A DNA stretch of 64,000 bases from Psammoneis japonica (taxonomy: Eukaryota): positions 149,939-213,938 of the forward strand of contig QPGO01000038.1 of the NCBI GenBank assembly GCA_008632985.1. The letters are read 5' to 3'. Of the stretch, positions 1 to 60,841 are shown one piece after another; within the stretch, counting starts at the first letter, position 1, and each line of letters opens with the position of its first letter. Both the position numbers and the translations under genes were made by a program. The notes under the pieces are model-generated. The model did no database searches. It was not told the DNA's origin and saw only the letters and a list, made by a program, of their open reading frames with translations.

Positions 1-437
1 CAGCGCATGTGTGTGAGGTGATTGTGAGATGTTTGCCAGATGTGCACAAAATGTGTGAGATCTGTTTTTGAGGTGTGCACAAGGTGCGCATGAGATGTGC
101 TCATGATGTGTGTGAGATGTTTTTGAGATGTGTGTGAAGTGGTGCATGTGAGGGGTTTACAAGATGTGCACAAGATGCACACAAAAAAGTTTGAAAAATG
201 TGTGCAAGGTGTGCAAGAGGTTTTTGCAAAATGTGCGCAAGGTGTGTGCGTTGGCACTTGTGAGATGTGTGCAATGTGTGTGTGAGGTGTTTGTGAGATG
301 TTTGTGAGATGACATGTGAAACACTCAAAAGATGTGTGAGATGTGTGCAAGGTGCTTGTGAGACATGTGCAAGGCATTGGCCAGAGGTGTGTGTGCAATG
401 TTTGAAAGATGTGTGCAGAACATTTGGGAGACATGCG

Positions 438-1760
438 GGAGCTTTCTGCCAGACATGTGCAAAAGTGTTTGTGAGATGTGCATCTGGTGTGCAAGGCACA
501 TGTGTGAAGTGCTTTTTCAAGAGCCCTGTGCAAAAGAGCTGTGACACAAACTCCCGTTGGAGCATTTTGTGGTCACTGTGCTGAGCTTTCATCTGCTTTC
601 TCATCCAATGCATGCCCAACCACTGATTTGCAGGTGCACTCTCCATTGTAAACTCTGGCACTCATTTCCATCTCAACAACATTTGATGGCATGGCATGTG
701 TTTTCACAAAATTCTTTTGGCTGTTTTTCATTCTCAGACAACAGCCAAGGACCAAAGAATGCATGTGAAGCTGACAACAACTCCAGCAAGCATGTGGACA
801 TTGACTGCAAGCAAGGTTTTCTGTGTCTTGCACCCCAGCTTCCTTTGCTCAGTGTCAGAGGTCACTCTGGGACAGGCACAGAGCTGAGATGGAGAGAGAT
901 GGGTGTTTGACCTCCTCTGTTCTCCAGCTTCAAAAGTGCCCAACTCCCCTGGGAGAGCAGCTTCTCACACAGCAATGGCGCTTGCATGCATCAGCCCTTT
1001 TCTTGGATTTTCTGGCATTCCTTTTGCAGCTGCAAGCATGTGTTGCTTTGACTTCCACTTCTGCCATGCCAGCAAGGGATCGCCCCAAATGTGCTCAATG
1101 CACAAGATTGAGCATGCCTTTCCAAATGCTCTTGTTGCACAACTCGTTCATCAAACAAAAAGTGCGCCACATCACAGGCTTCACACTTGCACACTCCCTG
1201 TGCACCCAAAACAGGATGGGACAATTGTCTGCCAGATCACCTTTGCAGATGAAAATGGCAGGCCCTTTCCATGATCTGACCTTCAAAAAATCAGCAAAGC
1301 CTTTGTTGGGTTGACCCAAGAACTCCTGATGTGCTTGAAACATGCTCTCATCACCGTCAATTTTCTCCAACACAAAAGAAGCTGCCAAGAGCATGGCACA
1401 GCATTTTGTTTGTCTTTCAACACAGGTCCAGCCAAGGAGGGCATGCTGTGTGCCAGCGTGCCATGGTGTGCTGAGCTGGACAAACTGCAGCGCTTCTGGA
1501 GCATGACGGAGGCAGTCTTGGGACCCATGCCAGCAGGGAGTGTGGAGCAATTTTTTGGAATTTTGCACGCAGAAATGTGCGCGCAAAACACACGATGGAT
1601 GACAAAAACAATTGTGTCACAGATCAGCACTGTGAGCTCCCACCTGGGGCTGGAGCGCATCATTTCCACGTGTGATCTTCAAAAAAATTGTTCCAGACTC
1701 ACTGTTTTGCAAAACCCCAGATGTTTTGTTTGCAGCAAAATTGCAAGACCATCAATGCTC
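438..1760. repeat. Macrosatellite complex block A (other copies ~5704-7020, ~19066-20385, truncated ~24253-24509)
   Basis: Near-identical copies visible by eye, and the ORF track repeats the same peptides (e.g. NSFGCFSFSDNSQGPKNACEAD). Confidence 0.9.
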
Positions 1761-3989
1761 CAGGTGTGCAAGATGTGTGCACAAGATGCAAGCAAGATGT
1801 GTGTCAAATGCATGTGAGGTGCTTGGGTGAGATGTGTGCAAAATGTTTGAAAGAAGCGCGTGGGATGTGCGCAAGATGCACACAAACAAAATGTGCATGA
1901 CACACAAGACACACGCAAGGTGTTTGTGAGATGTTTGCAAAACATTTGTGAAGAAGTGTGTGTGAGGTGTTTTGCCAGGTGTGTGCACTGAGCATGTCAA
2001 ATGTTTGAAAGACCATGCTGTGTGTGAGATGTGTGTGAAGTGTTTGAAAGATGTGCGTGAGATGTGCACGGGTGTTTGCAAAATGTGGTGATTGCAAGAT
2101 CATGTGTGCAAAACATTTGAAAGATGTGTGCAAAGCACTCAAGAGATGTGCATGAGATGTGTGTGTGAGGTGTTGGCAAGATGCTCACAATTGTGCAAGG
2201 TGGGTGCAGGGTGTTTGCAAGACATGTGTGAGTGCAAGACATGTGTGCAAGATGTGTGTGCAAGATGTGTGTGCAAGACGTGTCTGCAAGACGTGTGTGC
2301 AAGATGTGTGTGAAGTGCATGCAAAATGCGCAAGGCATCAGCAAGATGTTTGAGAGATGTGTGCAAAATGTTTGGACAATGTGTGTGTGAGATGTGCACA
2401 AGGCATTTGCAAAAAATTTGCATGAGATGTGTGTGTAAAATGTGTCCCAAGATGAGTGCAAGGTGTTTGCAAAATGTGTGCAAGGTGTTTGTGAGATGTT
2501 TGCAAGCAGGTGTGTGTGGCACGTGCACAAAACATTTGAGTGATGTGTGCAAAGTGTTTGCAAAATGTGTGTGAGATGTGTGTGGTGTGCAAGAGATGTG
2601 TGTGCCATGGGTGTGTGCCAGACCTGTGCAAGGCATTTGTGTGACAGGTGCAAAGCATGTGGGAGCTGCACAGGAGCTGTGCTCCAGACATGTGCAGGGC
2701 ATTTGTGAGATGTGTGCATGATTTGCAAGACAGCACATGCAAGATGTTTGCAAATTTTTCGTGAGATGTGTGCATGGTGTGTGTGATCTTTTTATGATGT
2801 GTTTGTGAGATGTGTGCAAGATGTGTGCAAGGTTCTTGCAAGATTTGGTGTTTGCAAGGTGTGCACAAAATGTTTGAAAGATGTGCGCGAGACATGCGCA
2901 TGATGCGAGTGAGGAGCTGGCAAGGTGTGTCTGTGTGACGCCAGCAAAATGTGTGCAAGCTGTGCACAAGCACATTGTGTGTGAGGTGTTTGTGAGATGT
3001 GTGCAAGATGTGTTTGTGAAATGTGTGGGAGATGTGTGCAAAATGTTTGGATGATGTGCACGAGATGCGCGTGAGATGTGTGCAAGGCATTTGCAAAATG
3101 TGCGCGACACGTGCACAAAATGTTTGAAAGATGTGCGCGGCATGCACAAAAGACGTGAGCAACACATGTGCAAGGTGTGCACAGCATGTGTGCCAGACCT
3201 GTGTGGGGCATTTGTGTTGTGTGTGTGAGGCACAGCAGAGATGTGCAGGAGCTGCACACCTGAAATGTGCATGGTGTGCAAGACATGTGTGTGCAAAACA
3301 TTGAAAGATGCACGCAAGGTGTGCCAGATGTGTTCAATGCATGTGTGTGGGGTGTTTGTGAGATGTGCACAGCATGTGCATGATTTGTTTGTGAGATGTT
3401 TTCCAGGTGTGTGTGTGAAATGTGTGCAGAGCATGTGTGGTCAGTGTGCAAGATGTGTGCAACATGCACACCAGATGTGTGCAAGGTGTGTGCAAGATGT
3501 GTGTGAAGTGGTGTGCGTGAGGTGTTTGCAAGATGTGCGTGAAATGTTTGAAAGGTTCGTGAGAGGCAATTGAAAGATGCGTGCACAAAGTGCATGTGAT
3601 GTGTTTGCACAATGTGCACAAGGTGTGTGCAGGACATTTGTGAGATGTGCGCACAATGTGTGTGCAAGGTGTTTGACAGATGTTTGTGAGATGTGCAAAA
3701 CATTTGAAAGATGTGTGCACAAGATGTGCGTGGGATGTGTGTGAGATGTGTGCAAAGTGTTTGTGAGGTGTTTGCAGTGCATGTGCAAGATGTGCACAAA
3801 TGTTTGAAACATGTGCACAAGATGTGTGTGGGGTGTTTGCAAGATGTGCGTGAGATGTTGGCCAACATTGTGTGAGGTGTGTGTGTTTGAGATGTGTGCA
3901 AAATGTGTGTGTCACATTTGCAAGATGTGTCAAGATGTGCACAAAACATTTGAAAGATGTGCGCAACATGTGTGCAAGGTGTGTGCGAG

Positions 3990-4830
3990 ATGTTTGAAGC
4001 ACAGCAGGAGTTTGGTCAACCCAACAAAGATTTTGCTCACTCAGAAGATTTGACCCCCACTGTCTCCATCTGCAAATGTCATTCAGCAGAGATCCATCTC
4101 ATCCTGTCTTGGGTGCACAGGGCAAGTCATGTGAGAAAAGCTTTTGGAAGGATGATGCGCTCAATCCCGCACATTGAGCATGTTTGGAGATCCATTGCGG
4201 GCATGTGAAAGAAGCAGAGGACAAAGCAACACATGCCCACAGCTGCAAAGAAAGACCAGAAGATCCAGGAAGAAAGGGCTTCATGCACAAGTGCCGCAGC
4301 TGTGTGAGAAGCTGCTCCTGTGGGAGCTGGGCATTTTTTGGTGCTGATGGAACAGAGAAGGTCAAGCACCCATCTCTCCTCCCAACCTTGGCTCTGCACC
4401 CACCCCAGAATGACCTCTGATGCTGAGCAAAGGAGGTCAAGGTGCAAGACATGGGGAAACCCACAGAGTCGGCAGCCCCCCATGTGCTCAGTTTTGTGCC
4501 ACTCTTTGGCCCTTGGCTGTTGTCTGAGAATGAAAAAAGGCAAAAGACTCTCATGGTGCAAGCATGTTGTGCCAACAAATTTTGTTGAGATGCTGATGAG
4601 TGCCGGGGTTCACACCAGAGAGTGCATCTGCAAATGTGGGGTTGGACACACTTTGCATGAGAAAGCTCCTGGAAAGCTGAGCACAAGCGCAATGACTGCA
4701 AAATGTGCCAACAAAGTTTGTGCCACAACTCTTTTGCAGGTGGCTCTTGCTTTGACAAATCACCTCACTCGTGCTCCATGCACACCAGACACACATTTCA
4801 CAAACACCTTGCACACGTCTGAGGCATTTG
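3990..4830. repeat. Macrosatellite complex block B, a diverged inverted paralog of block A (other copies ~16907-17750, ~22528-23368)
   Basis: B (+) aligns to the reverse complement of A ~440-1345, e.g. ggctgttgtctgagaatgaaaaa, gctgtgtgagaagctgctc, caaagcaacacatgc, ggtcaacccaacaaag. Confidence 0.9.
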
Positions 4831-7800
4831 AGACATGCAGGAGCTGTGTGGCTGACTTGTGTGGCGTGTTTGCAAGATGTGTGTGCAAGCAGTTTGCAGG
4901 GCACACATGTGCACAATGTTTGAAAGATGCACACGAGGTGCATGTGAGGTGCGCAAGATGTGCGCATGTGGCAAGAAGCACGTGTGTGAGGTGTTTGCCA
5001 GACATGTGTAAAATGTGTGTCATGTGTTTGCAAGACATGTGTGCAAGCTGTGTGCAAAACATTTGAAATGTTGCGTGCAAGAAGCGCCACAAATGTGTGC
5101 GAGGTGTTTGCAAAATGTGTGTGCAAGGTGTGTGCAAGGCATTTGTGAGATGTGTGCAATGTGTGTGCAAGGTGATTGCAAGATGTGTGCAGTGCATGTG
5201 TGTGAGGTGTTTGTGAGATGTTTGCCAGATGTGCGCAAAATGTGTGTGATCTGTTTTTGAGGTGTGCACAAGGTGCACACAAGATGTGCTCATGATGCAT
5301 GTGAGATGTTTTTGAGATGTGTGTGAAGTGGTGCATGTGAGGGGTTTACAAGATGTGCACAAGATGCACACAAAAAAGTTTGAAAGATGTGTGCAAGGTG
5401 CACAAGAGGTTTTTTCAAAATGTGCGCAAGGTGTGTGCGTTGGCACTTGTGAGATGTGTGCAATGTGTGTGTGTGAGGTGTTTGTGAGATGTTTGCGAGA
5501 TGACATGTGAGACACTCAAAAGATGTGTTGATGGTGTGCACAGCACATTTGGGAGGTGCAAGATGTGTGAAAAATGTTTGAAAAATGTGTGTGTGCATGT
5601 GTGAGATGTGTGCAAGGTGCTTTTGAGACATGTGCAAGGCATTGGCCAGAGGTGTGTGTGCAATGTTTGAAAGATGTGTGCAGAACATTTGGGAAACATG
5701 CGGGAGCTTTCTGCCAGACATGTGCAAAAGTGTTTGTGAGTTGCGCATCTGGTGTGCAAGGCACATGTGCGAAGTGCTTTTTCAAGAGCCCTGTGCAAAA
5801 GAGCTGTGACACAAACTCCCATTGGAGCATTTTGTGGTCATTGTGCTGAGCTTTCATCTGCTTTCTCATCCAATGCATGCCCAACCACTGGTTTGCAGAT
5901 GCACTCTCCATTGTGAACTCTGGCACTCATTTCCATCTCAACAACATTTGGTGGCATGGCATGTTTGCACAAAATTCTTTTGGCTGTTTTTCATTCTCAG
6001 ACAACAGCCAAGGACCAAAGAATGCATGTGAAGCTGACAACAACTCCAGCAAGCATGTGGACATTGACTGCAAGCAAGGTTTTCTGTGTCTTGCACCCCA
6101 GCTTCCTTTGCTCAGTGTCAGAGGTCACTCTGGGACAGGTGCAGAGCTGAGATGGAGAGACATGGGTGTTTGACCTCCTCTGTTCTCCAGCTTCAAAAGT
6201 GCCCAACTCCCCTGGGAGCAGCTTCTCACACAGCAATGGCGCTTGCATGCATCAGCCCTTTTCTTGGATTTTCTGGCATTCCTTTTGCAGCTGCAAGCAT
6301 GTGTTGCTTTGACTTCCACTTCTGCCATGCCAGCAAGGGATCCCCCCAAATGTGCTCAATGCACAAGATTGAGCATGCCTTTCCAAATGCTCTTGTTGCA
6401 CAACTCATTCATCAAACAAAAAGTGCGCCACAACACAGGCTTCACACTTGCACACTCCCTGTGCACCCAAAACAGGATGAGACAATTGTCTGCCAGATCA
6501 CCTTTGCAGATGAAAATGGCAGGCCCTTTCCATGATCTGTCCTTCAAAAAATCAGCAAAGCCTTTGTTGGGTTGACCCAAGAACTCCTGATGTGCTTGAA
6601 ACATGCTCTCATCATCGTCAATTTTCTCAACACAAAAGAAGCTGCCAAGAGCATGGCACAGCATTTTGTTTGTCTTTCAACACAGGTCCAGCCAAGGAGG
6701 GCATGCCATGCACCAGTGTGCCATGGTGTGCTGAGCTGGACAAATTGCAGCACTTCTGGAGCATGACGGAGGCAGTCTTGGGACCCATGCCAGCAGGGAG
6801 TGTGGAGCAATTTTTTGGAATTTTGCGCGCAGAAATGTGCGTGCAAAACACACGATGGATGACAAAAACAATTGGTCACAGATCAGCACTGTGAGCTCCC
6901 ACCTGGGGCTGGAGTGCATCATTTCCATGTGTGATCTTCCAAAAAATTGTTCCAGACTCACTGTTTTGCAAACCCCAGATGTTTTGTTTGCAGCAAAATT
7001 GCAAGACCATCAATGCTCCAGGTGTGCAAGGTGTGTGCAAGATGTGTGCACAAGATGCAAGCAAGATGTGTGTCAAATGCATGTGAGGTGCTTGGGTGAG
7101 ATGTGTGCAAAATGTTTGAAAGATGTGTGCGGGATGTGCGCAAGATGCACACAAACAAAATGTGCATGACACACAAGACATGCACAAGGTGTTTGTGAGA
7201 TGTTTGCAAAACGTTTGTGAAGAAGTGTGTGTGAGGTGTTTTGCCAGGTGTGTGCACTGAGCATGTCAAATGTTTGAAAGACCATGCTGTGTGTGAGATG
7301 TGTGTGAAGTGTTTGAAAGATGTGCGTGAGATGTGCACAGGTGTTTGCAAAATGTGGTGATTGCAAGATCATGTGTGCAAAACATTTGAAAGATGTGCAC
7401 AAAGCACTCAAGAGATGTGCATGAGATGTGTGTGTGAGGTGTTGGCAGATGCTCACAATTGTGCAAGGTGAGTGCAGGGTGTTTGCAAGACATGTGTGCA
7501 AGATGTGTGTGAAGTGCGCGCAAAATGCGCAAGGCATCAGCAAGATGTTTGAGAGATGTGTGCAAAATGTTTGGACAATGTGTGTGTGTGAGATGTGCAC
7601 AAGGCATTTGCAAAATTTGCATGAGATGTGTGTGTGAAATGTGTCCCAAGATGAGTGCAAGGTGTTTGCAAAATGTGTGCAAGGTGTTTGTGAGATGTTT
7701 GCAAGCAGGTGTGTGTGTCACGTGCACAAAACATTTGAGTGATGTGTGCAAAGTGTTTGCAAAATGTGTGTGAGATGTGTGTGGTGTGCAAGAGATGTGT

Positions 7801-8336
7801 GTGCCATGGGTGTGTGCCAGACCTGCACAAGGCATTTGTGTGGCAGGTGCAAAGCATGTGGGAGCTGCGCAGGAGCTGTGCTCCAGACACACAGGAAACA
7901 AGAATCCACGGAATCACACGGAATGTGTGCGCGACTCTGTCACGAAAGGCCTCAAAACCGACTCTGTCACAAAAGGCCTCAAAACGGAACATGAATGACA
8001 TGGTGCAAAATGAAAAAAGCCTCATCAAAATCCGCATCACATTCCAACGTGTGCACTCATTCCACACCCAAGACGCAATTTGCACATTCCGTTTGCCATT
8101 TCGTTTGTCAGAAAGAGGCCACTCATTTTAAATTCCATTTGCTGTTCCTTTTGCTGCACTCCGTTTGTGGATTCCTTTCACTCAACCAATGACACGGAAT
8201 GCAACAGCTTCACTTTCCGTGTTGTGGTCGGAATGTGGCATGTCATCTCTAGAGCTTGTGATGTGGAATGCTTTGCGGAGTCAAGCGAAACTCCAAAACG
8301 GGATTGTTGTGCTGCTGCACTTCCATGCACAGCGAG

Positions 8337-8522
8337 TGACAGAATGCCAAAGGTCAATGATGACAGAGGCATGAAAGCTCCCCAAGCACTGGGACTGTGA
8401 CAACATGAGCACCAGCAGATGAGAAAGTGAGAGGCAGATCTCAGAGAGATCTGCTCGTCTGTCTAAATGGTTCGGTCATCATCCATGTGCAGTCTGTTCA
8501 TTGTGCGATGGGCAGACTGACA
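8337..8522 (-). repeat. 3' LTR of the Copia element (186 bp)
   Basis: tgacaga...ctgaca; aligns end to end with 13969-14155; followed on + by ccctcccct (PPT complement). Confidence 0.95.
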
Positions 8523-8689
8523 CCCTCCCCTGATCTGCAATGTCTCAAAAACAGAAGACAGTGCAGATCAAAACAAGAACAGGGATGATGTGAACAGAGC
8601 GACCAGAAAGAGGACACCAAATGTGTCCAAGCCCAATGTGCATCAAATGACGGGGCAACATGCAGCAGGGAGGCCACCCAGGAAAAATG

Positions 8690-11274
8690 TCAACGGCAGT
8701 GTCCCATCATGCGTCGAGCATGGCAAGCATGGAGCACCCACCCAAGAGCCTTGGTGAGGTCATCACTGGGGTTGATGATGCCAGGGATGTGTCCAGTGAC
8801 AATCTTGCCTGCTTCCTTCCATTCTTGAATCGTGAAGAACTGAGTCTCAATGTGGTGTGAACGCTTGGTTGGAATCGAATGATTGATGATCTTGATGGCC
8901 AATTTGTTGTCAACATGCAAAGGGGTTGGCTTCATTTGGGAACAACCAAGGTCATGCAGCACATGGCGAAGGCAAAGAACATGCTTGGTGGTGGCACCAG
9001 CAGCACAGAATTCTGCTTCTGTAGAACTCGCAGCTGTCACCGACTGCGTCTTGCAACAAAAGGAGACAGCAGCACCAGCTGACATGCAAGCATGTCCCAT
9101 CGTGGAATGTCGATTGCGAAGATCATTTCCGTGTGCAGCATCAAGGAAGGCAACAAGTTGATGGTCATGCTCAGGAGCAGGGAATGATGGGAGAGACGGG
9201 TCGGGACTCAAGCGTTCATGCGGACAGGCAGGGAGGCTCGGGTCACGTTTAGATTTCTTGCAGTTCAATTCCCAATGTTTGATGCGTCGGAGACACTTGC
9301 ATGCATCCTTGAGTGCATTGCAGTGCACCGCTGCAGGACAAGTGGAGAACTTGGAAAGGGCAGTGATGGCACAGCCAATGTCAAGTCGACAGACAACACA
9401 TGCATGCAATGGCTCACCAAGGAGGGCACGGCATCCAAACCCAGCAGCTTGTTGTAGCTCCGCATGTTCCAGTGTGCCTTCAGCAGACCAATGGCAGTGT
9501 AAAGATCGCGAACAGAATCCACCAGAATTGGAGTCGCCTTAAAATCATCAAGCAGTTCTTCATCACTTGGTGTGGACCAACCATGTGAGAGGCAAACACG
9601 GTCGATGCAATTGTGGATGGCGACACCAATCAAGTCATCATGCTGATGGATGTCCACACCATTGAATTCCTCCAGGAGGCCAAGGCACTTGAAAGGTGGA
9701 GCAGTTTCTGAGTCCAATTGAAGGGCTTTGCCAATCCTGTCATAGATTGTCTTGGCAATGGACTCTTCGGGGCAAGCAATGGCGAAGTCATCGACCTGGC
9801 AAAGGAGCAAAATTTTGTGTCCTTCAAATGCAGCAGAGCAGACACATTTGTCATGAGTGGTGTTCCGAAACAAAAGATTCACATCAGATGAGATGCCATC
9901 AATGTGATTCTCCCAGAGCATGCCGGCTTCTGGGTGTCCTTGAAGAGCATGTTGCACAGGGAGGACCACACTCATGTCCAACTCCTTTCCAAATCGAGAC
10001 TTGTGCCAAGTCGCATGTGCATCATCAATGGCAACGTGTGCAGGATGTGACAGGCGGGGAGAGTGGGCACAGGCATCTCGGGCATCACCGCCATGTGCCG
10101 GACAACCCATTGTAGCTGCCAGGGCAAACAACATCCGTTGGACAGGTTGCTCAACACAGGAGGAGCATGTTGAATGGAGACGATGGAGAACAGATGCAGC
10201 ATGAGGGGAGCCATCGCAACACTGATGAGAGTGCCACGTGCCGTCATGTTTGAGGTCATGTTGCCAGTGTGGTCTCAGTGCAACTGCATCCTTTGGACGT
10301 TTGACAGGAGCACCAAACATGCCCAACTCATGAAACTGGTCAAGTTGTTTAAATTCGCCCGCACGCCACTCAGGCCAAGCACCCAATTGCTTGAGGCAAT
10401 GGCGAGTGAAAGTGCCCAAGGCTTGTTCCTCTGGGGCAATTGCACGGGAGGAGATTGCACGGATGTTGACGACACCATTGTCGCAGTCAACACACACAGG
10501 TGGCAGGACGTCATCATCGTCAACAGCTTCAAAATCAGTGTCGGGATGGCGCACCGCAGCAATGGCACGTGTGTCGGCCTGTGCAAGTTCTGGGACATGT
10601 TCATTGTCAGGGTCCGGGGCAGGGGAGAAGATGTTGTGCTCCATCAGAGCATGTTGGAGAGCTTGAGAGTCCAAGCGACGTTCTGGCATGACTTCAATTT
10701 CAAAATGTGTCTTGCCAGACTCATGCAACTGCTGGAAACACTTGACAGCATCGTCACGGGTAAAAACTGGTTGATGATCAATCGATGCGATGTGCGCGCC
10801 TTTGATCTTGCTGCGGGTCACCTTCAAGTTCGAGAAGAGATGAGCAGTGGGGGAACCATGTTGAATGTCCGAGACAAAAACACATTGGTGCAGATCATCC
10901 ACAGCTGAAGAGAAGCCATGAGTGGGATCCGTGAATGGTCCTTTCATGATGCGTGTGATGGTCTTGGCAAAAGGGTTGCCATGGAAGTGGAGTTCATCCA
11001 CAGCAGTCTCTTCAGTGTCAGCAGGGAGGGCATCACCAGCCTGAGTGCATTGCAAATGAACAACATTCGGGGGAATAGAGTCGTGGGGTAAATCATTCAT
11101 CCCCTCATCACATCTGATGTGCTTGGCCAGCTCAACACGCGATGTCTTGGTGTCGCACCACAAAATGTTCTTGGTGGCATCCGGAAGGCATCCCAAGAAA
11201 ATCCCTTTGCGGGAGACGGTCCGGAATTTCGCTGGACGGTGATTCGCCCCATTGAAAATCTGGAGACTGGACAA
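8690..11274 (-). pseudogene. pol: Copia pol remnant: integrase C-terminal (SH3-like) region, PDZ-like insert, reverse transcriptase, RNase H; frameshift near 9400-9490
   Basis: SRKGIFLG, ALQGHPEAG, LLCQVDDF (RT catalytic), DAAHGND, SSTEAEF, PLHVDN, NPSDDLTKALG (Copia RNase H). Confidence 0.93.
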
Positions 11275-13830
11275 AAGTGCCAGGCAGAGAATCAGATGGT
11301 CCTTGATGAGGTGGCAACAAACCTTGTGGTCCTTGAAATTCAGAGGCTTGCATGGCCACTTCGCACTTCAAGAATTGACAAAAACGTGCATGGAAGCCCT
11401 CGATGTGTGGGTTGTCATTCAAGACAGGACACTCATGGAACAAGTGTTCTTCAGAACAAACAAGGCATGGTTTCTTGGAGGCCTCTGTGGGGGTGACCTT
11501 GAGTTTGTGTGCCGAAGTGGAGCAAACATGATGAAGAAGATGATCTTCATCTGCAGAAGGTACATCAAGGTCATTCAATTCAGCACAGAGGGAGTCAAAG
11601 GTGTCCTCGGGGGAGTGATCAACATCGGCAGCGTCTGGCAGCTCGTCCGCATCCTCTGCAATGGGAGGGACATCCGGGACAGTCAAGGAATTGACATCGG
11701 CAGTTGTGTGATGTGTGCCCCCTGGGTGTTGATCCCATGCACGGCATGGATTGCAAGGAGTTGTGCGAGTTGCAAGAGATGGACCATCCGACTGATGAAG
11801 GAAGTCAGAAAGGGTCTCAACAATCTGTGCATCCACGCACTTCTTGAGCACAGCAGGGGACTTCCTTTCATCTCCAGCAGTGCAGGACAAGAACTTGGAG
11901 CACCCAGTGTTCTTGACAAAAACAGTCATCTCTCGAGAGTCATCCAACGTAGAGTCCGCATTGAAGACATGAGCACGCAGCTGCAGAAAATCCTTGAAAC
12001 GCAAGTGACAGTCCGTCAAGGATAGATTGCCTTGAACAGGGCAGGAATCTGCCAACCCAGCAGCCTTGTGATCAAAAGCTGGGTGGTTCTCGTGGACAAT
12101 TTGCTTGAGAGCATTGCAGCCATTGCCACAGCATGAGGCAACAATCCGATGACACTTGCCGTTCTTGGGGAACATGTCCAACTTGGAAAGGATCTTGTGA
12201 AGGGAACTCTGTGCTTCTTTGCAATGAACACACATTCATTGGGGTGAGTCATTGTCTTTGCCGTTGCCAATCTCAAAACCCTTCTCACCACCGTGGTCCT
12301 TGGCGAAGCACCACAAAGGATGCATGTGGTGTCCCGAGTCAAAGGAGTGATGTTGAAAATTTTGGTGCCATGCACACATCCCAGCAGGAGAATTGTCATG
12401 GCAGATCGGAGGTTCTCTGAACAGCATCTTCTGGTCAGGGGGCGAGCTCATGACAAACAGGGTGCCATCATTGAGAATGATGCGGTCAGATGCATCAACA
12501 CAGTGGCAGAATCCATGGTCATGAGGGACTGGAGAGCTCTTCAGGGTGACGGCACCACTGTCTTTGCAGTCGCAGCATGTGCGAACATCAGGAGGCAGGG
12601 TGTTGGGGCTGAAGAGACATTTGGATGCTGTGGAAGTTGCAGGAGTTCCAGAGGTCTTGCCACAGAGGCAGCAGAAGGCGGAGCGTGGCTTGACACAAAC
12701 TTGTTGAGGGGGTGATTGAGGATGGATCTACGTGCTGCGGTCTAATTTAAAACAGCTCGCATTTCCCGCACTTCACCGTGTCATTTTGACCTGCCTCGGA
12801 ACACCCCCGAACACTTGTGCGTTCGTCAAACCCTCACAGGGGCTGTTAGATGGCTGTGGGAGCTGCACATTTGGTGCTTCAAATGCCACTTGTCGACCTG
12901 TGCCCTGTTGTCAGGTCAAAAAAACCGCTGATTTTCGTTAAAATCGGGCTTCTCATGGGAGACCAGCGATGACTTTCCGGGAAATGCCGACAAGTGGCAT
13001 TTGACTGGCTGCGGACATGTCTACAGTCGTCAAGGTAAAAGTCGCGCATGGCCACACCTGTCGTTTGAGCATTCTAGGGTGTCTGGAGAACGGACAATGT
13101 TCGACCGATCGCTGAAATTTTTTTTGCGAATGCGCGCGCATTTGCTGCGATGCATCCGGGTCATTTTTGTAAAAATTGTGAGCTCCCAAAAAACAGACCA
13201 CAGCACGTAGATCCATCCTTGAGTCATTCACACCAATTGTTGCAGGTCCGGAACTGGTCGCAGATGATGGTGCAGGCTGTGGGTTCTGCGGGCAGGGCAT
13301 GAGGGAGAACTCCTTCCAATCCTCACAGCCCCACATCATGTTGGGGTCAATGTCAATGTGGTGTGCAGAGATGACAATGCATTGATTTGATCGTGGCTCC
13401 AGAGATTGGTCTTGATGATCGACAAGAGAGATGCGGGCATCATGCGGATTGCATGAGGCCTGGCAGAGTCAATGATGCGGAGTGCAGCTTCACCCACAAT
13501 CATCTTGATGGGCTGCATGTCCACAGGATGAACCGCGCAAGGTGGGAACGCTGTGTTGACGAGGTGATCTTGAAATGTGTCAACAAAATCTTTCTTCGGT
13601 TGAGCATGTTCTGGATCATCAAAGAACGGGTCCAGACCAAACATTGAATCCGCACACATCTTGTTCAAGGTGGTGTGGAAATGAGGTGTCGTTGCATGTT
13701 CTTGAAATTCACAACAGATCTCTGCAATGGACGTCGGAGCGGCCTTTGTGAGGTCAGGAGACACCATGGTTTCACTTGGTGAGGGCATTTTTGGTCATGT
13801 GCACGCAGAAATCTGGTGTGTTTCTACGAT
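11250..13830 (-). pseudogene. gag: Copia gag remnant, frameshifted and interrupted by a MITE
   Basis: Zinc knuckle CLVCSEEHLFHEC (Cx2Cx3Hx4C) in ORF 11132..12235; lies between the 5' LTR and pol; ends near a GATTTTC (PDFQ) stretch. The 5' limit is approximate. Confidence 0.75.
12720..13218. mobile_element. MITE / non-autonomous TIR element (499 bp) nested in Copia gag
   Basis: 24-bp TIR ggatggatctacgtgctg(c/t)ggtct; 4-bp TSD TTGA (12716-12719, 13219-13222); retains TpA and CpG, unlike its flanks. Confidence 0.9.
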
Positions 13831-13968
13831 CGTGAAAAATGCAGGGAAAGCAAGAAAAAATTTGTTGTTGGAACAGACGATGAGGCTTGCTCGGTTGGCT
13901 CACAAAACAAATGAATTGAGATGGAAAGCTTGGCACAGAGTTCTGTGGCACAGTGCAAGGCCACAACC

Positions 13969-14155
13969 TGACAGAGTGCCGAAGGTCAACAATGACAGAG
14001 GTGTGAAAGACTCCCTGAGCACCAGGACTGTGATGACACGAGTGCCAGCAGATGAGAAAGTGAGAGGCAGATCTCAGAGAGATCTGCTCATCTGTCCAAG
14101 TGGTCCGGTCATCATCCGCGTGCAGTCTGTTCATCGTGCGACAGGCAGACTGACA
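13969..14155 (-). repeat. 5' LTR of the Copia element (187 bp)
   Basis: Aligns with 8337-8522. The adjacent minus-strand GGTTGTGG resembles the GGTTATGG half-tRNA-iMet primer-binding site of copia-type elements, with TA->TG. Confidence 0.95.
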
Positions 14156-17100
14156 GCAAGAACTCCTGCTCCACCCACGCTGGTGCTCTGCCTGCATTTG
14201 CACGACCGGTCACTTTGCTGCACCACTCAGCCGAATCTCAGAACAATGCATTCCTTCTTTTGATTGTCTTGGGTGCCCAATGGATGACAAGGGGCACTTC
14301 AACCTTTCCCAAACATGAGCAACATGCGACAAAGTCAAAAGTGAGCAACGCGTTCAATGTGACAGAAAAAGCAAAATGAAGCTTGCGCTTGCGGGCCGTT
14401 GATGGATGCAGCTGTCCAGACGTCTCTTTTGCCAAAAACTAGAGTGGTCGATGATGCGGTGCCACTCTCTCAGCAGCAGAGCAGCCGCACTTGGAACCAG
14501 AACCCTCTGGACTCTGGAAACAAACCCCAACAGCAAAAAGAGAGAAGAAAATGTGAGTGCAAGTGACCTTTGAAGTTCTGCACAATCACATCATAACTTG
14601 CCATCGTGTGTGCTGCAATTGTCACAAATCATGACACTCACTCATCCCATTGTTCTTCCCATTGTTTGCCGTTGTTGCTTCAGATGCACTTTGCCACACT
14701 GGTGTGTTGCGTTTTATGAGAGGAACGAGAAGAAGTGCGAGAAAATGTGGCTGCAATGCGAGCCCTCTCCTCTGGCATAAATCGTTGCACCTTCTACAGA
14801 GCAATCAAAGTCACAGCAGAATTCAATGATGTCTTTCCACGTGCTGTTAAACAAATGGCCATTGAATGTTTTCTTCTTTGTTTTTGATGCAATTGCTTCA
14901 CTTGCATGATTTGAATTGTTTGTTTTTAAAGTCCTCAATTTGTCAACAACATGTTGCAACATCAAAACAATGACAAAATGTGTGATCATTTTAGGATTCT
15001 CATTCCAATGACAATTGAACATAAAAACGTCATTGCTGCACCATCTTCTTTGCTGCACAACGAGTTAAAACAAAAACAAAGACATGCATGTCCTGCATGA
15101 CATTTTCCACGATCGAAGATGACAACAACATGCAGCCATGACGACAATGCGCGGTCTTACAGCATTGCAGCATCAAACATCTCACCATCATTCTTGATGC
15201 TGTGGTCGCTTGAATCATCACAGATGGACAAACAGAGAGCACCAAACAATGGAGTGGTGACGTTGGCCAATGTGGACAAAGTTCGTTGCAATTTTTCGCC
15301 TCAACACATGCTCTGTGCATGTTGTTAAAAACAAAATCCGTTCACCTCAGTCTGTGCACGGAATGAAGCAGTCGTTCCAGTTTCAAGTTCATGTTCTTCA
15401 CAAAAACGGAGTGCACTTGTCTTGGTGGTCAGAACGGAGTGTGACCATTGCACTCCGATTGCTGACACTTCCATCTTGAATGTGAGGGCATGTTCCTTAG
15501 AAAAGTCCAAAACAGAGCACGAAAAAAGGCCTTGTTTTTTGTGGAACAAACAAACGGAATGAGGAGAAAAAGCACACATTCCGTGTGATTCCATGGGTTC
15601 TTGTTTCCTGTGCATGTGCAGGGCATTTTTGTGAGATGTGTGCATGATTTGCAAGACAGTGCATGCAAGATGTTTGCAAATTTTTTGTGAGATGTGTGCA
15701 TGGTGTGTGTGATCTTTTTGTGACATGTGTGTGAGATGTGTGCAAGGTTCTTGCAAGATTTGGTGTTTGCAAGGTGCACACAAAATGTTTGAAAGATGTG
15801 CGCGAGACATGCGCATGACGTGAGTGAGGAGCTGGCAAGGTGTGTCTGTGTGACGCCAGCAAAATGTGTGCAAGCTGTGCACAAGCACATTGTGTGTGAG
15901 GTGTTTGTGAGATGTGTGCAAGATGTGTTTGTGAAATGTGTGGGAGATGTGTGCAAAATGTTTGGATGATGTGCACGAGATGCGCGTGAGATGTGTGCAA
16001 GGCATTTGCAAAATGTGTGCGACACGTGCACAAAATGTTTGAAAGATGTGCGCGGCACGCACAAAAGACGTGAGCAACACATGTGCAAGGTGTGCACAGC
16101 ATGTGTGCCAGACCTGTGTGGGGCATTTGGGTTGTGTGTGTGAGGCACAGCAGAGATGTGCAGGAGCTGCGCACCTGAAATGTGCATGGCATGCAAGACA
16201 TGTGTGTGCAAAACATTGAAAGATGCACGCAAGGTGTGCCAGATGTGTTCAATGCATGTGTGTGGGGTGTTTGTGAGATGTGCACAGCATGTGCATGATT
16301 TGTTTGCGAGATGTTTGCCAGGTGTGTGTGTGAAATGTGTGCAGAGCATGTGTGGTCAGCGTGCAAGATGTGTGCAACATGCGCGCCAGATGTGTGCAAG
16401 ATGTGTGCAAGATGTGTGTGAAGTGGTGTGTGTGAGGTGTTTGCAAGATGTGCATGAAATGTTTGAAAGGTTCGTGAGAGGCAATTGAAAGATGCGCGCA
16501 CAAAGTGCACGCGATGTGTTTGCACAATGTGCACAAGGTGTGTGCAGGACATTTGTGAGATGTGCACAATGTGTGTGCAAGGTGTTTGACAGATGTTTGT
16601 GAGATGTGCAAAACGTTTGAAATGTGTGTGCACAAGATGTGCATGGGATGTGTGTGAGATGCTGTGTGCAAAGTGTTTGTGAGTTGTTTGCAGCGCATGT
16701 GCAAGATGTGCGCAAATGTTTGAAACATGTGCACAAGATGTGTGTGGGGTGTTTGTAAGATGTGCGTGAGATGTTGGCCAACATTGTGTGAGGTGTGTGT
16801 GTTTGAGATGTGTGCAAAATGTGTGTGCCACATTTGCAAGATGTGTCAAGATGTGCACAAAACATTTGAAAGATGTGCGCAACATGTGTGCAAGGTGTGT
16901 GCAAGATGTTTGAAGCACAGCAGGAGTTTGGTCAACCCAACAAAGATTTTGCTCACTCAGAAGATTTGTCCCCCACTGTCTCCATCTGCAAATGTCATTC
17001 AGCAGAGATCCATCTCATCCTGTCTTGGGTGCACAGGGCAAGTCATGTGAGAAAAGCTTTTGGAAGGATGGCGCGCTCAATCCCGCACATTGAGCATGTT

Positions 17101-18321
17101 TGGAGATCCATTGCGGGCATGTGAAAGAAGCAGAGGACAAAGCAACACATGCCCACAGCTGCAAAGAAAGACCAGAAGATCCAGGAAGAAAGGGCTTCAT
17201 GCACAAGTGCCGCAGCTGTGTGAGAAGCTGCTCCTGTGGGAGCTGGGCATTTTTTGGTGCTGATGGAACAGAGAAGGTCAAGCACCCATCTCTCCTCCCA
17301 ACCTTGGTTCTGCACCCACCCCAGAATGACCTCTGATGCTGAGCAAAGGAGGTCAAGGTGCAAGACATGGGGAAACCCACAGAGTCGGCAGCCCCCCATG
17401 TGCTCAGCTTTGTGCCACTCTTTGGCCCTTGGCTGTTGTCTGAGAATGAAAAAAGGCAAAAGACTCTCATGGTGCAAGCATGTTGTGCCATCAAATTTTG
17501 TTGAGATGCTGATGAGTGCCGGGGTTCACACCAGAGAGTGCATCTGCAAATGTGGGGTTGGACACACGTTGCATGAGAAAGCTCCTGGAAAGCTGAGCAC
17601 AAGCGCAATGACTGCAAAATGTGCCAACAAAGTTTGTGCCACAACTCTTTTGCAGGTGGCTCTTGCTTTGACAAATCACCTCACTCATGCTCCATGCACA
17701 CCAGACACACATTTCACAAACACCTTGCACACATCTGAGGCATTTGAGACATGCAGAAGCTGTGTGGCTGACTTGTGTGGCGTGTTTGCAAGATGTGTGT
17801 GCAAGCAGTTTGCAGGGCACACATGTGCACAATGTTTGAAAGATGCACACGAGGTGCGTGTGAGGTGCGCAAGATGTGTGCATGTGCCAAGAAGCGCGTG
17901 TGCAAAAAGCACGTGTGTGAGGTGTTTGTGAGATGTTTGCCAGATGTGTGTAAAATGTGTGTCATGTGTTTGCAAGACATGTGTGCAAGCTTTGTGCAAA
18001 ATGTTTGGCAGATGGGTGCAAAACATTTGAAATGTTGCGTGCAAGAAGTGCCACAAATGTGTGCAAGGTGTTTGCAAAATGTGTGTGCAAGGTGTGTGCA
18101 AGGCATTTGTGAGATGTGTGCAATGTGTGTGCAAGGTGATTGCAAGATGTGTGCAGTGCACGTGTGAGGTGTTTTTGAGATGTTTGCCAGATGTGCGCAA
18201 AATGTGTGTGATCTGTTTTTGAGGTGTGCACAAGGTGCACACAAGATGTGCTCATGATGTGTGTGAGATGTTTTTGAGATGTGTGTGAAGTGGTGCATGT
18301 GAGGGGTTTGCAAGATGTGCA

Positions 18322-18718
18322 GACGTGTTCCAGCTCTAGGTGGGACCTCGTACTACTGAACTGTGACAAAATTATTTTTTATCATCCGTCGTATGTTTCG
18401 CACGTACATTTCTACGTGTTCTATTATAAAAAATTGTTCCACACTGCCTGTTTTGCGAAGCCAAAGGCTTTCTGTTATCTGCACTTATGTCAATAAAAAT
18501 GCGCTGGGTATATTCTTTAATGTCTAAAGAATATACCCGGGCATACTGTAAAGAATGTACTTAAAGTGTGGAGGAGGAGATACGTTCGCAAAATTTGCCT
18601 CTTTTTCTGTTGGCGATCATTCATACATCCATTGCTTAATAATTTTACTACGGAGCTCGCACGTAGAATTCTACGGGCCCAATGTCACAAAAAGTCCCAC
18701 CTAGGACTGGAACCCGTC
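18322..18718. mobile_element. Young AT-rich MITE (~400 bp) inserted into the macrosatellite
   Basis: Imperfect TIR gacgtgttccagctctaggtgggac / gacgggttccagtcctaggtgggac. Absent from the equivalent site (aagatgtgcacaag) in other units. Flanked by TGCA on both sides; the site is palindromic, so a TSD of 0, 2 or 4 bp fits equally. Rich in TpA and CpG. Confidence 0.92.
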
Positions 18719-21700
18719 TGCACAAGATGCACACAAAAAAGTTTGAAAGATGTGTGCAAGGTGCACAAGAGGTTTTTGCAAAATGTGCGCAAGGTGTGTG
18801 CGTTGGCACTTGTGAGATGTGTGCAATGTGTGTGTGTGAGGTGTTTGTGAGATGTTTGCGAGATGACATGTGAGACACTCAAAAGATGTGTTGATGGTGT
18901 GCGCAGCACATTTGGGAGGTGCAAGATGTGTGAAAAATGTTTGAAAAATGTGTGTGTGCATGTGTGAGATGTGTGCAAGGTGCTTTTGAGACATGTGCAA
19001 GGCATTGGCCAGAGGTGTGCGTGCAATGTTTGAAAGATGTGTGCAGAACATTTGGGAAACATGCGGGAGCTTTCTGCCAGACATGTGCAAAAGTGTTTGT
19101 GAGCTGCGCATCTGGTGCACAAGGCACATGTGTGAAGTGCTTTTTCAAGAGCCCTGTGCAAAAGAGCTGTGACACAAACTCCCGTTGGAGCATTTTGTGG
19201 TCATTGTGCTGAGCTTTCATCTGCTTTCTCATCCAATGCATGCCCAACCACTGATTTGCAGATGCACTCTCCATTGTGAACTTTGATGCTCACTTCCATC
19301 TCAACAACATTTGGTGGCATGGCATGTTTGCACAAAATTCTTTTGGCTGTTTTTCATTCTCAGACAACAGCCAAGGACCAAAGAATGCATGTGAAGCTGA
19401 CAACAACTCCAGCAAGCATGTGGACATTGACTGCAAGCAAGGTTTTCTGTGTCTTGCACCCCAGCTTCCTTTGCTCAGTGTCAGAGGTCACTCTGGGACA
19501 GGTGCAGAGCTGAGATGGAGAGACATGGGTGTTTGACCTCCTCTGTTCTCCAGCTTCAAAAGTGCCCAACTCCCCTGGGAGCAGCTTCTCACACAGCAAT
19601 GGCGCTTGCATGCATCAGCCCTTTTCTTGGATTTTCTGGCATTCCTTTTGCAGCTGAAAGCATGTGTTGCTTTGACTTCCACTTCTGCCATGCCAGCAAG
19701 GGATCCCCCCAAATGTGCTCAATGCACAAGATTGAGCATGCCTTTCCAAATGCTCTTGTTGCACAACTCATTCATCAAACAAAAAGTGCACCACATCACA
19801 GGCTTTACACTTGCACACTCCCTGTGCACCCAAAACAGGATGAGACAATTGTCTGCCAGATCACCTTTGCAGATGAAAATGGCAGGCCCTTTCCATGATC
19901 TGTCCTTCAAAAAATCAGCAAAGCCTTTGTTGGGTTGACCCAAGAACTCCTGATGTGCTTGAAACATGCTCTCATCATCGTCAATTTTCTCCAACACAAA
20001 AGAAGCTGCCAAGAGCATGGCACAGCATTTTGTTTGTCTTTCAACACAGGTCCAGCCAAGGAGGGCATGCTGTGCACCAGTGTGCCATGGTGTGCTGAGC
20101 TGGACAAATTGCAGCACTTCTGGAGCGTGACGGAGGCAGTCTTGGGACCCATGCCAGCAGGGAGTGTGGAGCAATTTTTTGGAATTTTGCACGCAGAAAT
20201 GTGCGCGCAAAACACACGATGGATGACAAAAACAATTGAGTCACAGATCAGCACTGTGAGCTCCCACCTGGGGCTGGAGTGCATCATTTCCATGTGTGAT
20301 CTTCCAAAAAATTGTTCCAGACTCACTGTTTTGCAAAACCCCAGATGTTTTGTTTGCAGCAAAATTGCAAGACCATCAATGCTCCAGGTGTGCAAGGTGT
20401 GTGCAAGATGTGTGCACAGGATGCAAGCAAGATGTGTGTCAAATGCGTGTGAGGTGCTTGGGTGAGATGCACGCAAAATGTTTGAAAGATGCGTGCGGGA
20501 TGTGCGCAAGATGCGCACAGACAAAATGTGCATGACACACAAGACATGCACAAGGTGTTTGTGAGATGTTTGCAAAACGTTTGTGAAGAAGTGTGTGTGA
20601 GGTGTTTTGCCAGGTGTGTGCACTGAGCATGTCAAATGTTTGAAAGACCATGCTGTGTGTGAGATGTGTGTGAAGTGTTTGAAAGATGTGCGTGAGATGT
20701 GCACGGGTGTTTGCAAAATGTGGTGATTGCAAGATCATGTGTGCAAAACATTTGAAAGATGTGTGCAAAGCACTCAAGAGATGTGCATGAGATGTGTGTG
20801 TGAGGTGTTGGCAGATGCTCACAATTGTGCAAGGTGGGTGCAGGGTGTTTGCAAGACATGTGTGAGTGCAAGACGTGTGTGCAAGATGTGTGTGAAGTGC
20901 GCGCACAATGCGCAAGGCATCAGCAAGATGTTTGAGAGATGTGTGCAAAATGTTTGGACAATGTGTGTGTGAGATGTGCACAAGGCATTTGCAAAATTTA
21001 CGTGAGATGTGTGTGTGTGAAATGTGTCCCAAGATGAGTGCAAGGTGTTTGCAAAATGTTTGCAAGGTGTTTGTGAGATGTTTGCAAGCAGGTGTGTGTG
21101 GCACGTGCACAAAACATTTGAGTGATGTGTGCAAAGTGTTTGCAAAATGTGTGTGAGATGTGTGTGGTGTGCAAGAGATGTGTGTGCCATGGGTGTGTGC
21201 CAGACCTGTGCAAGGCATTTGTGTGGCAGGTGCAAAACATGTGGGAGCTGTGCAGGAGCTGTGCTCCAGACATGTGCAGGGCATTTGTGAGATGTGTGCA
21301 TGATTTGCAAGACAGTGCATGCAAGATGTTTGCAAATTTTTTGTGAGATGTGTGCACGGTGTGTGTGATCTTTTTATGATGTGTTTGTGAGATGTGTGAA
21401 AGGTTCTTGCGAGATTTGGTGTTTGCAAGGTGTGCACAAAATGTTTGAAAGATGTGCGCGAGACATTCGCATGACGTGAGTGAGGAGCTGGCAAGGTGTG
21501 TCTGTGTGACACCAGCAAAATGTGTGCAAGCTGTGCACAAGCACATTGTGTGTGAGGTGTTTGTGAGATGTGTGCAAGATGTGTTTGTGAAATGTGTGGG
21601 AGATGTGTGCAAAATGTTTGGATGATGTGCACGAGATGCGCGTGAGATGTGTGCAAGGCATTTGCAAAATGTGCGCGACACGTGCACAAAATGTTTGAAA

Positions 21701-24700: not shown

Positions 24701-25070
24701 CAGCAGACATTAGACACATTACTCTGTTAGACACGTCGTAAGGGAGTTGTTGTTGGGGGCCGCGACACGCCGACGGTGCCAGGTGCCGCCCTAAATTCCA
24801 TCTCCCTTGGGCTTGCGTGCTTTCCTGCTTGAGCTCTCGTGCATTCGCATGTCCGTCAGCCGTCGTCTATGTGACTGACTCACTCGCGCACTTCGAACTT
24901 ATCGTTCGTGTGACGATGATGCGTAGTAAGAGAAGAAACAAAGGGCAATCCTGCTGAGTGGTGCGTTGATGGTTGGTGGATGTTATTCTGATACAACTGT
25001 CAAAAGCCAGAACGAAAAGATTGGATTCTGATGCACTTGTACTCGCAACATAAACTTGTTACTCCTCCTG

Positions 25071-26372: not shown

Positions 26373-26619
26373 TGCGAGACTATCGCCACGGTCGAGTTGG
26401 TACGTTGAACGGTTCGTGCATACTAGCACCGGCGTCCTTGGAGTGAATTCCTTATCTCTCTCCGTCTGTGTTCTAGGACGTGTAGTCGGGGCTGCGAAAA
26501 ATCTTGCTTTGAAAAATGGTACGTCTAGTGATGAAAAAGATTGCATTTGTCGTTTGGGTTGCATATCTAATAACTCTATTATATCATCCAAGCACTAACG
26601 GAACTCGATCTGTGCAAAA

Positions 26620-38100: not shown

Positions 38101-38120
38101 TCTTTTTTTCGAAAGCCCAT
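32110..38120 (-). CDS. Phospholipid-transporting P4-type ATPase (flippase), multi-exon, with apparent frameshifts
   Basis: DNSISTSKYT, ETSSIDGETNLK, FIPLSLYV, FSDKTGTLT, AESPDEGALV, FDSDRKRMS, GATAIEDKLQ, WVLTGDK, CRVSPKQK, GDGANDVGMIQ. GT-AG introns at ~37674-37994, ~36310-36386 and ~32640-32724. Frame breaks near 36750-36930 and ~33990. Confidence 0.95.
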
Positions 38121-39590: not shown

Positions 39591-39699
39591 AAGTAATAAG
39601 CTACACAAATCAACCATATATATGTACTGTTCATTCTTTCTTACTCCAAGTCACAAGCATCAGATGCTTGCTTGCTTGCAGTAGCATCTAGAAACTCAA

Positions 39700-44290: not shown

Positions 44291-44419
44291 CTCACTGAAG
44301 TCTCTTTTCATTGCAGAAGGCTAGGGCCCTAATCAATTAATCAAGCACGCTCAATGCGTTCCAGCTACTCTAGAGAGCAAACTCATTGAAGTACCGTAAC
44401 TGGGAAACAGGCTCTCACT

Positions 44420-60840: not shown

Positions 60841-60841
60841 A

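Follow-up and report, generated by a model that had tools for sequence, protein, structure and literature searches.

Loss of TpA from a Copia element, a terminal-inverted-repeat element and a tandem array in diatom nuclear DNA

Described dinucleotide-directed processes and the diatom window

The closest described counterpart of the process reported here is the TpA-specific hypermutation of integrated viral DNA in the chlorarachniophyte Bigelowiella natans (Mettrop et al., 2026, bioRxiv 10.64898/2026.01.13.699255). According to the accessible part of that preprint, 230 of the 231 changes found with Illumina sequencing in two viral regions of mutation-accumulation lines were A>G or T>C, all at TpA, with about 6e-7 mutations per site per generation and a de novo rate about 1000-fold above background. 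The regions are a 186-kb insert from a nucleocytoplasmic large DNA virus (NCLDV), single-copy and silent, and a 25-kb virophage insert; the process was seen in only 11 of 15 lines. The genome also contains 124 TpA-poor, CpA+TpG-rich clusters enriched in reverse transcriptase (RT) and DDE domains, and the authors propose an ADAT2-like DNA adenine deaminase as the candidate enzyme. Here, we describe the same signature in 64,000 nt of contig QPGO01000038.1 from Psammoneis japonica (the whole stretch is called the window below), where TpA has been almost erased from a Copia element, from the terminal-inverted-repeat (TIR) element carrying it, and from a tandem array split by that TIR element, while adjacent host genes are untouched.

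The two cases are alike in that the changes are transitions from TpA to TpG or CpA only (in the diatom on the basis of the related metagenomic element L055, of differences between long terminal repeats (LTRs) and of Tyr to Cys/His replacements), and in that these changes stay within foreign or silent DNA, the host DNA next to it being normal (observed/expected ratio (O/E) of TpA 0.01-0.12 in the diatom blocks and 0.60-0.61 in genic DNA). Both leave low TpA with high CpA+TpG as the long-term footprint, which in B. natans is enriched in RT/DDE sequences, and a genome-defence role has been proposed there. They differ in host, a stramenopile here and a rhizarian there, and in target, since Copia, a TIR element and a 5.2-kb tandem array take the place of giant-virus and virophage inserts. 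Erasure is near total in the diatom (O/E 0.01-0.07), unlike in the NCLDV region (Rho 0.45), whereas de novo events were measured in B. natans and the diatom case is known from its footprint. A flank preference TAY > TAG > TAA (Y, pyrimidine), the lack of strand runs and independence from CpG were found here and are absent from the accessible account of B. natans, which mentions neither "trinucleotide" nor "diatom", flanking bases or strand runs.

The initial annotation of this DNA knew of no named system with such a signature; the B. natans preprint reports one. In our literature search, which covered diatoms, TpA, processes resembling RIP and the deamination of adenine, TpA erasure was reported only there, and the accessible parts of Maumus 2009 (PMC2806351) and of a 2025 preprint on diatom transposons (10.1101/2025.10.24.684338) do not mention it. 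As far as these sources extend, a natural process that rewrites A:T to G:C at a single dinucleotide within selected genomic regions was previously known from that one 2026 preprint and one alga. The present case is the first TpA-only signature in a diatom, where it lies on transposons and on a tandem array, and its saturation is by far the highest.

Other systems share parts of the pattern. [quoted passage not shown] RIP is triggered by duplication, has a length threshold and is strand-coordinated. Deamination of 5-methylcytosine (5mC) at CpG resembles the diatom process in its one hit per palindromic pyrimidine-purine step, equal strands, TG/CA products, gradual course and occurrence in silenced DNA; it is, however, unable to alter TpA or Tyr codons, and TpA loss here is faster and can proceed with little CpG loss. 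TadA/ADAT deaminases, together with amphioxus BjADAT2 and engineered adenine base editors, convert A to I next to a 5' U or T. To our knowledge, theirs is the only enzyme fold giving A to G at TA, and we know of no natural TpA-wide editor of genomic DNA that has been demonstrated. Their preference for a 5' U/T was established on tRNA and RNA substrates, as stated in the B. natans preprint (10.64898/2026.01.13.699255). In dinoflagellates, another algal group of the stramenopile-alveolate-rhizarian (SAR) assemblage, 5-hydroxymethyluracil (5hmU) replaces T preferentially in TA/TC, is enriched on repeats and silences transposons; the accessible part of the report describes a mark rather than a mutation, and does not report TpA erasure (PMC11572971). 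The mark is not known in diatoms. Diatoms also possess DNMT4, a relative of fungal RID whose function is given as unknown in the accessible text (PMC9998398).

Extent of TpA erasure and mutation of the Copia element

The depleted DNA of the window forms four blocks (1-24509 minus a 399-bp insert, about 39900-43950 and about 54550-60700), which together hold 82 TpA in 34,253 bp, compared with 1164 in 28,203 bp of genic DNA; the corresponding CpG counts are 607 and 1679. Bins of 500 bp contain 0-3 TpA over 1-24500 (except 18001-19000), 40001-44000 and 54501-60500, and 13-39 in most genic bins. The region 8690-11274, flagged initially, has 11 TpA (O/E 0.07; 4.3/kb against about 40/kb in neighbouring genes; P(<=11 | 96 expected) = 4e-28), and the depletion extends well past it, with O/E 0.01-0.12 per element. 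TG and CA are raised in the depleted blocks (O/E 1.6-2.2), coupling TpA loss to a gain of CpA+TpG, and ApA O/E is not reduced. CpG O/E is 0.14-0.58, so that CpG decay operates in the same blocks. GC-biased gene conversion was rejected because only TpA is affected among changes from A/T to G/C and the G+C content of the blocks is not elevated.

The Copia element (8337-14155, coding strand minus) has a TpA O/E of 0.07 and comprises the following parts:

8337-8525, minus strand: Copia 3' LTR (element orientation), TG...CA ends, 5-bp target duplication GCGAG/GCAAG
8690-9538, minus strand: RNase H-region open reading frame (ORF) of Copia pol, stop-to-stop 282 aa, 0 Tyr, 20 Cys, 23 His
9265-11367, minus strand: ORF of the integrase C-terminus and reverse transcriptase, stop-to-stop 700 aa, 3 Tyr, 28 Cys, 51 His
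11132-13794, minus strand: upstream coding remnants, presumably the gag/protease/integrase region as judged by position, 0 Pfam families
13969-14158, minus strand: Copia 5' LTR, TG...CA ends

The TG..CA LTRs, the 5-bp duplication and an RVT_2 reverse transcriptase downstream of integrase are those of Ty1/Copia elements, although the RVT_2 match of the RT ORF (E 4.3e-7, 30.2 bits) lies just below the 31.6 cut-off. PF13976, PF07727 and PF25597 occur in homologues of this ORF. The fifty database homologues are up to 53% identical to it, and their Tyr content is 0-5.6%, mostly 3-5%; at 3.8%, about 27 Tyr are expected in the 700-aa ORF and three are seen (P(<=3) = 1e-8).

The initial annotation had drawn attention to the Tyr-free RNase H ORF and the three Tyr of the RT ORF, both borne out by the stop-to-stop translations, and had quoted motifs with Cys or His in place of an expected Tyr. 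All of these motifs are present, except that the first reads LHACVVCRLDIGCA rather than MHAC...; the family consensus LLYAY.T.RPDIGYA appears as PLHACVVCRLDIGCA in the RNase H-region ORF. When the RT ORF was aligned with 18 homologues, with the consensus taken from 15 of them (Tyr-poor P0155, P0123 and P0152 were left out), the 18 conserved-Tyr columns read Cys six times, His five, Tyr two, Phe one, Leu three and Val once in the window. Thus 11 of 18 are Cys or His, the Leu and Val cases lie near the frameshifted C-terminus, and the expected Tyr is indeed what the homologues have, in several of the Cys/His columns in 15 of 15. The 30 conserved-Arg columns read Arg 11, His seven, Cys three, Gln one, Trp one and seven others. 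Two decays are therefore superimposed, TpA to TpG/CpA and CpG to TpG/CpA. Deamination of 5mC at CpG alone was rejected, as it explains Arg to His/Cys and neither Tyr to Cys/His nor the loss of TpA.

Four homologues (P0155, P0123, P0152 and P0165) have 0-1.9% Tyr and elevated Cys/His. Looking for transposon proteins poor in Tyr would be an inexpensive way to screen public collections for TpA erasure at the protein level.

Within about 186 bp, the two LTRs differ by seven TG<->CA doubles, one TA<->CA, six CG<->TG/CA and three other transitions, with no transversions. LTRs are identical at insertion, and a TG facing a CA arises when one palindromic step is resolved twice independently. The predominance of such doubles thus indicates that this Copia copy was mutated in place, as DNA, after insertion. 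Because 14 of the 17 differences derive from TpA or CpG, dating of transposons by LTR divergence would be badly inflated in such genomes.

These data bear on the idea that transposon transcripts were edited as RNA by a UA-preferring, ADAR/ADAT-like enzyme and fixed by reverse transcription, or that the element is TpA-poor by native composition. A U at -1 is indeed the usual preference of RNA adenosine deaminases, as the accessible B. natans text notes (10.64898/2026.01.13.699255). Editing of transcripts does not, however, account for two LTRs of one insertion mutated independently at seven doubles, for the erasure of a non-coding tandem array and a TIR element, or for the equal strands (TG:CA 48:41, below), and a native composition does not account for the lost Tyr residues of conserved catalytic domains. 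We regard both as extremely improbable. Selection or native avoidance of TpA is likewise ruled out by the conserved-Tyr columns and the LTR pair.

Outside Copia, the window is organized as follows (no strand is assigned to these features):

1-7889: tandem array of a ~5.2-kb non-coding unit, part 1; 6 TpA, O/E 0.01; CpG O/E 0.23
7890-15612: 7.7-kb TIR element carrying Copia; 41-bp terminal inverted repeats at 7890-7930 and 15572-15612, 95% identity
15613-18320: tandem array, continued; 2 TpA, O/E 0.01
18321-18719: 399-bp insert resembling a miniature inverted-repeat transposable element (MITE), with ~27-bp terminal inverted repeats; 33 TpA, O/E 0.94; CpG O/E 1.1
18720-24509: tandem array, last units; 7 TpA, O/E 0.02
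24700-39600: genic control 1, unaffected; TpA O/E 0.61, CpG O/E 1.02; holds a P4-type ATPase gene on the minus strand
39900-43950: TpA- and CpG-erased block; 12 TpA, O/E 0.04; CpG O/E 0.14
44100-54300: genic control 2, unaffected; TpA O/E 0.60, CpG O/E 1.07
54550-60700: TpA-erased block with internal repeats; 14 TpA, O/E 0.03; CpG O/E 0.27

Copies of the array unit are 90-97% identical in self-BLAST. Their TG/CA states are mostly common to the tandem units (20 doubles at 5343 matched sites), so the array was erased before its last duplication or homogenisation. The part at 1-7889 has no Pfam-recognisable ORFs among those listed. On its plus strand, the unit is markedly richer in G than in C, the GC skew reaching 0.47 at 2001-4000. 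Degenerate internal sub-repeats, partly in inverted orientation, are 65-73% identical.

Comparison of the junction with uninterrupted units indicated that the 7.7-kb TIR element splits one array unit, and one contig of a public sequencing run bridges 7889 to 15628, skipping it. The junction suggests a 2-bp duplication, now reading CA; no transposase was recognisable in the element. Its left arm has a TpA O/E of 0.06 with a CpG O/E of 0.83, its right arm 0.12 and 0.58. A Pfam search of 90 ORFs from the other erased blocks and the upstream Copia part gave no family above cut-off; an APOBEC4_like match among these ORFs (16 bits, E 0.011) was dismissed as a sub-threshold chance match.

The erasure also reshapes the reading frames. 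It lowers the density of TAA, TAG and the complementary triplets from 8-10 to 0.5-1.1 per kb and raises that of TGA from 18 to 27 per kb. With TAA and TAG nearly absent, TGA is almost the sole stop, and therefore long spurious ORFs open in all frames: at 6000-14000, the six frames together have 47 overlapping ORFs that reach 80 aa or more, and ORFs of up to 433 aa occur within the non-coding array. TpA-erased DNA thus misleads gene prediction.

The edges are sharp, erasure ending within tens to ~150 bp of element boundaries. The first TpA past the array end (24509) is at 24654, 145 bp on, with four CpG between, and TpA reappears 16 bp inside the edge of the 399-bp insert. An edge within ~150 bp of a repeat end would suit a true RIP-like system, in which homology reveals duplicated DNA, perhaps during the sexual cycle, and bursts of mutation are introduced by an enzyme associated with the RID-like DNMT4. 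The targets are multi-copy, with 2600 contigs of run X1 on the Copia stretch and an array that is tandem, the spared insert resembles the effect of the RIP length threshold, and the relationship of diatom DNMT4 to RID mentioned above would fit as well. The chemistry is opposite, though, TpA being removed rather than created, strand-coordinated runs are missing (z values below), and we know of no action of the C5-methyltransferase fold on A or T. The published B. natans target is single-copy (10.64898/2026.01.13.699255, accessible part). We consider a RIP-like burst quite improbable. The description of the process as repeat-targeted, made initially, is not established either: Copia and the array are multi-copy as duplication sensing expects, but the 399-bp insert within the array is untouched and the B. 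natans case, as far as that text goes, concerns single-copy DNA.

Substitution pattern in other copies and relatives of the element

Among the contigs of public run X1, 2600 lie on 7800-15800, 407 of them at least 99% alike, which marks the Copia family as highly repeated. Variant places comprise 702 transitions and 113 transversions. Among the 40 variant places listed of 818, 11 have CA/TG in the window where other copies read TA, 13 have CG in other copies and four are the reverse CpG case; the contigs include the window's version as well as copies still reading TA. Runs X2 and X3 gave almost no coverage of the Copia stretch.

Scanning metagenome contigs with a family alignment yielded 80 related Copia loci, with TpA O/E from 0.01 to 0.78 (median 0.62; two below 0.2 and 17 below 0.5). 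TpA O/E correlates inversely with TG/CA (Spearman -0.61) and only weakly with CpG (+0.24). The relatives L055, L049 and L013/L014, which come from a few microbial-mat metagenome assemblies, span all degrees of erasure; L013 and L014 are one element (99.96% identical) assembled in two samples. L055 is the extreme case, with 4 TpA in 5501 bp and a CpG O/E of 0.69, like its relatives. Near the end of family homology in L014, TpA per 250 bp climbs from ~4 to 9-11, not sharply.

We compared L055 with three TpA-normal relatives at sites where these agree, counting each TpA once per strand. A>G occurred at 72 of 151 TpA (0.48), against 21/305 at ApA, 34/408 at CpA and 24/386 at GpA (0.06-0.08); the TpA-normal control L071 had 3/52 at TpA. 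The expected enrichment of A>G at TpA over other NpA contexts was thus found. Since each TpA is counted on both strands, a per-strand rate of 0.48 corresponds to a single hit at almost all TpA. The 98 ancestral TpA now read TG (48), CA (41), TA (1), CG (2) or other (6), which makes 89 of 98 TG or CA and leaves the strands balanced. More than 90% of sites were reached while other sites diverged by a few per cent. Each TpA is hit once, its TG/CA product being no longer susceptible, which explains the near absence of double hits at saturation (2/98).

The context counts speak against the error-prone repair proposed initially as an option, in which a Pol-eta-type polymerase of the Y family (WA to WG) is recruited to methylated DNA. 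A>G at TpA does fall within the WA motif; A>G at ApA, however, is at background beside CpA and GpA, which largely refutes this option, ApA O/E is not lowered in the blocks, and CpG loss and TpA loss are uncoupled. We find the polymerase explanation very improbable. The uncoupling itself is observed: L055 kept 41 of 59 ancestral CpG, a loss no higher than in the control, and both L055 (CpG 0.69) and the left arm of the TIR element (CpG 0.83) lost TpA with little CpG loss. TpA loss is independent of CpG decay, and the second mutational process proposed initially is distinct from it.

TG and CA outcomes are randomly interleaved along the elements, with runs tests at unanimous sites giving z = -0.05 (L055), +1.04, and +0.56 (L013). 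In half-erased elements, struck and spared TpA are not patchy (z = 0.15 in L013, -1.03 in L049). The process is thus distributive and symmetric between strands. These results also bear on a sequencing or assembly artefact in which a modified base at TpA is misread as G or C. The platform of the window assembly and of run X1 is unrecorded, which leaves such an error conceivable, but the same erasure recurs in separate metagenome assemblies, TG and CA are interleaved instead of following one kind per strand of origin, X1 copies with TA exist, and the states are inherited, being mostly common to the tandem units (20 doubles at 5343 sites) and partly to L055 and L013. In B. natans, Illumina sequencing revealed the events de novo, according to the accessible text (10.64898/2026.01.13.699255). 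The initial expectation that the loss is no basecalling or polishing artefact is upheld, and we hold an artefact to be hardly credible.

L055 and L013 are 83% identical, and at sites mutated in both, 70 are concordant and 38 discordant. About one third of the hits were inherited and the remainder are separate. The process is therefore gradual, with partly erased elements still being copied.

A course of this kind would also be expected from decay driven by a mark: a symmetric modification of TpA in silenced DNA (for example 5-hydroxymethyl- or 5-formyluracil, formed by a dioxygenase of the TET/JBP type, or else a modification of the adenine) would occasionally mispair and turn TpA into CpA/TpG as 5mCpG does, with no deaminase involved. 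The statistics are like those of CpG decay, with one hit per palindromic site, equal strands, no runs or patches and a gradual course; elements of one data set range continuously from TpA O/E 0.01 to 0.78; and L055 and L013 share hits only in part. The TA preference and repeat enrichment of dinoflagellate 5hmU fit as well. Against this, 5hmU is generally read as T, the TC context would be expected to decay too and no such signal stood out, and our literature search turned up no such mark in diatoms. Activity in only 11 of 15 B. natans lines suits a regulated enzyme better, as far as the accessible account shows (10.64898/2026.01.13.699255). Mark-driven decay is the main rival of the explanation by DNA editing, and the statistics agree with it at least equally well; we rate it as unlikely.

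The base 3' of the A influences the outcome. Hit fractions before C, T, G and A were 0.60, 0.54, 0.43 and 0.31 in L055, 0.59, 0.61, 0.20 and 0.33 in L049, and 0.49, 0.46, 0.22 and 0.15 in L013. This gives a flank preference TAY > TAG > TAA, within which separate -2 and +1 effects are not identifiable from outcome ratios at ~300 sites. Among surviving TpA of the window, 46% of strand contexts are TAA, compared with 20% in genes, and none of the 82 is ATAT or ATAC. The TAA excess of these survivors matches the preference in the metagenome elements and links the process in the window to theirs.

Interpretation and the surrounding genes

What the data display directly is a TpA-specific, strand-symmetric, gradual and distributive process that acts in place and is confined to part of the window. 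Its reality and its kinship with the B. natans type are in our view highly probable. The initial reading is supported, apart from its Pol-eta option. The overall explanation that we favour, TpA-specific A:T to G:C editing of mobile or silenced DNA with deaminase chemistry included, is likely; the deaminase chemistry taken by itself is a possibility somewhat short of probable.

Under the explanation by DNA editing, a heritable process at the DNA level turns TpA into TpG or CpA, that is, makes an A:T to G:C transition on either strand, and its action is confined to mobile, repeated or silenced DNA of the diatom. Of the possible chemistries, the likeliest is that a TadA/ADAT-type deaminase acting on DNA would convert adenine in 5'-TA-3' to hypoxanthine, which pairs with C. 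Recruitment of the enzyme would depend on the silent chromatin or the small RNAs of foreign DNA and not on copy number. Signals containing TA would be destroyed.

Several points weigh against this account. The blocks at 39900-43950 and 54550-60700 are without mobile-element genes recognisable by Pfam, and the MITE-like insert lies unmutated inside a fully erased array; it may be very young or exempt, for example because it is too short. The evidence for polarity in the window consists of protein homologues that are no more than 53% identical, a single LTR pair and the 40 listed variants. Run X1 may be the source sample of the window assembly and, its platform being unrecorded, gives polarity and copy number rather than independence. 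Among the metagenome loci, the control copies may come from other species. L055 is also older than the control L071 (transversions 58/2368 and 16/2004), its A>G outside TpA is 2-4 times that of the control, and a relaxed runs test on L049 (at least two references) shows some clustering (z = -2.3). A symmetric base mark that decays would account for the lack of strand runs no less well than a single-strand enzyme, and ADAT2 is universal, so its presence proves nothing.

The fingerprint described here (TAY > TAG > TAA, distributive, strand-symmetric, independent of CpG) provides a yardstick for candidate enzymes, and a natural TpA-specific DNA adenine editor would be of interest for base editing. 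With its saturated footprint present in this diatom and in environmental Copia elements of diatom type, the process is probably widespread in diatoms, which are responsible for a large share of ocean photosynthesis. More tentatively still, TpA-directed genomic editing might be an old and widespread defence of SAR algae, distinct from cytosine methylation and completed on every silenced diatom element. In that case, the flank preference, the one hit per site and the symmetry between strands would for the first time characterise biochemically either a natural DNA adenine deaminase or a mutagenic TpA mark of a new kind. In the window, transposon genes have been scrambled by TpA erasure.

Where TpA is normal, the long ORFs belong to ordinary eukaryotic genes. 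A P4-type ATPase piece of 822 aa (33882-36350, minus strand) has closest relatives of ~50% identity, the named ones coming from diatoms (Cylindrotheca, Phaeodactylum, Fragilariopsis, Pseudo-nitzschia and Thalassiosira). Judging from these relatives, the window is nuclear DNA from a diatom to which no sequenced species in the protein collection is closely related.

A 504-aa acidic ORF (28050-29564, minus strand) is composed of two ~700-bp direct repeats, 88.6% identical, in TpA-normal DNA; this recent internal duplication has escaped TpA erasure. A stretch of ~190 bp is common to 50549-50726, in genic DNA, and 60827-61018, at the edge of the 54.5-60.7-kb erased block, with 74.5% identity.

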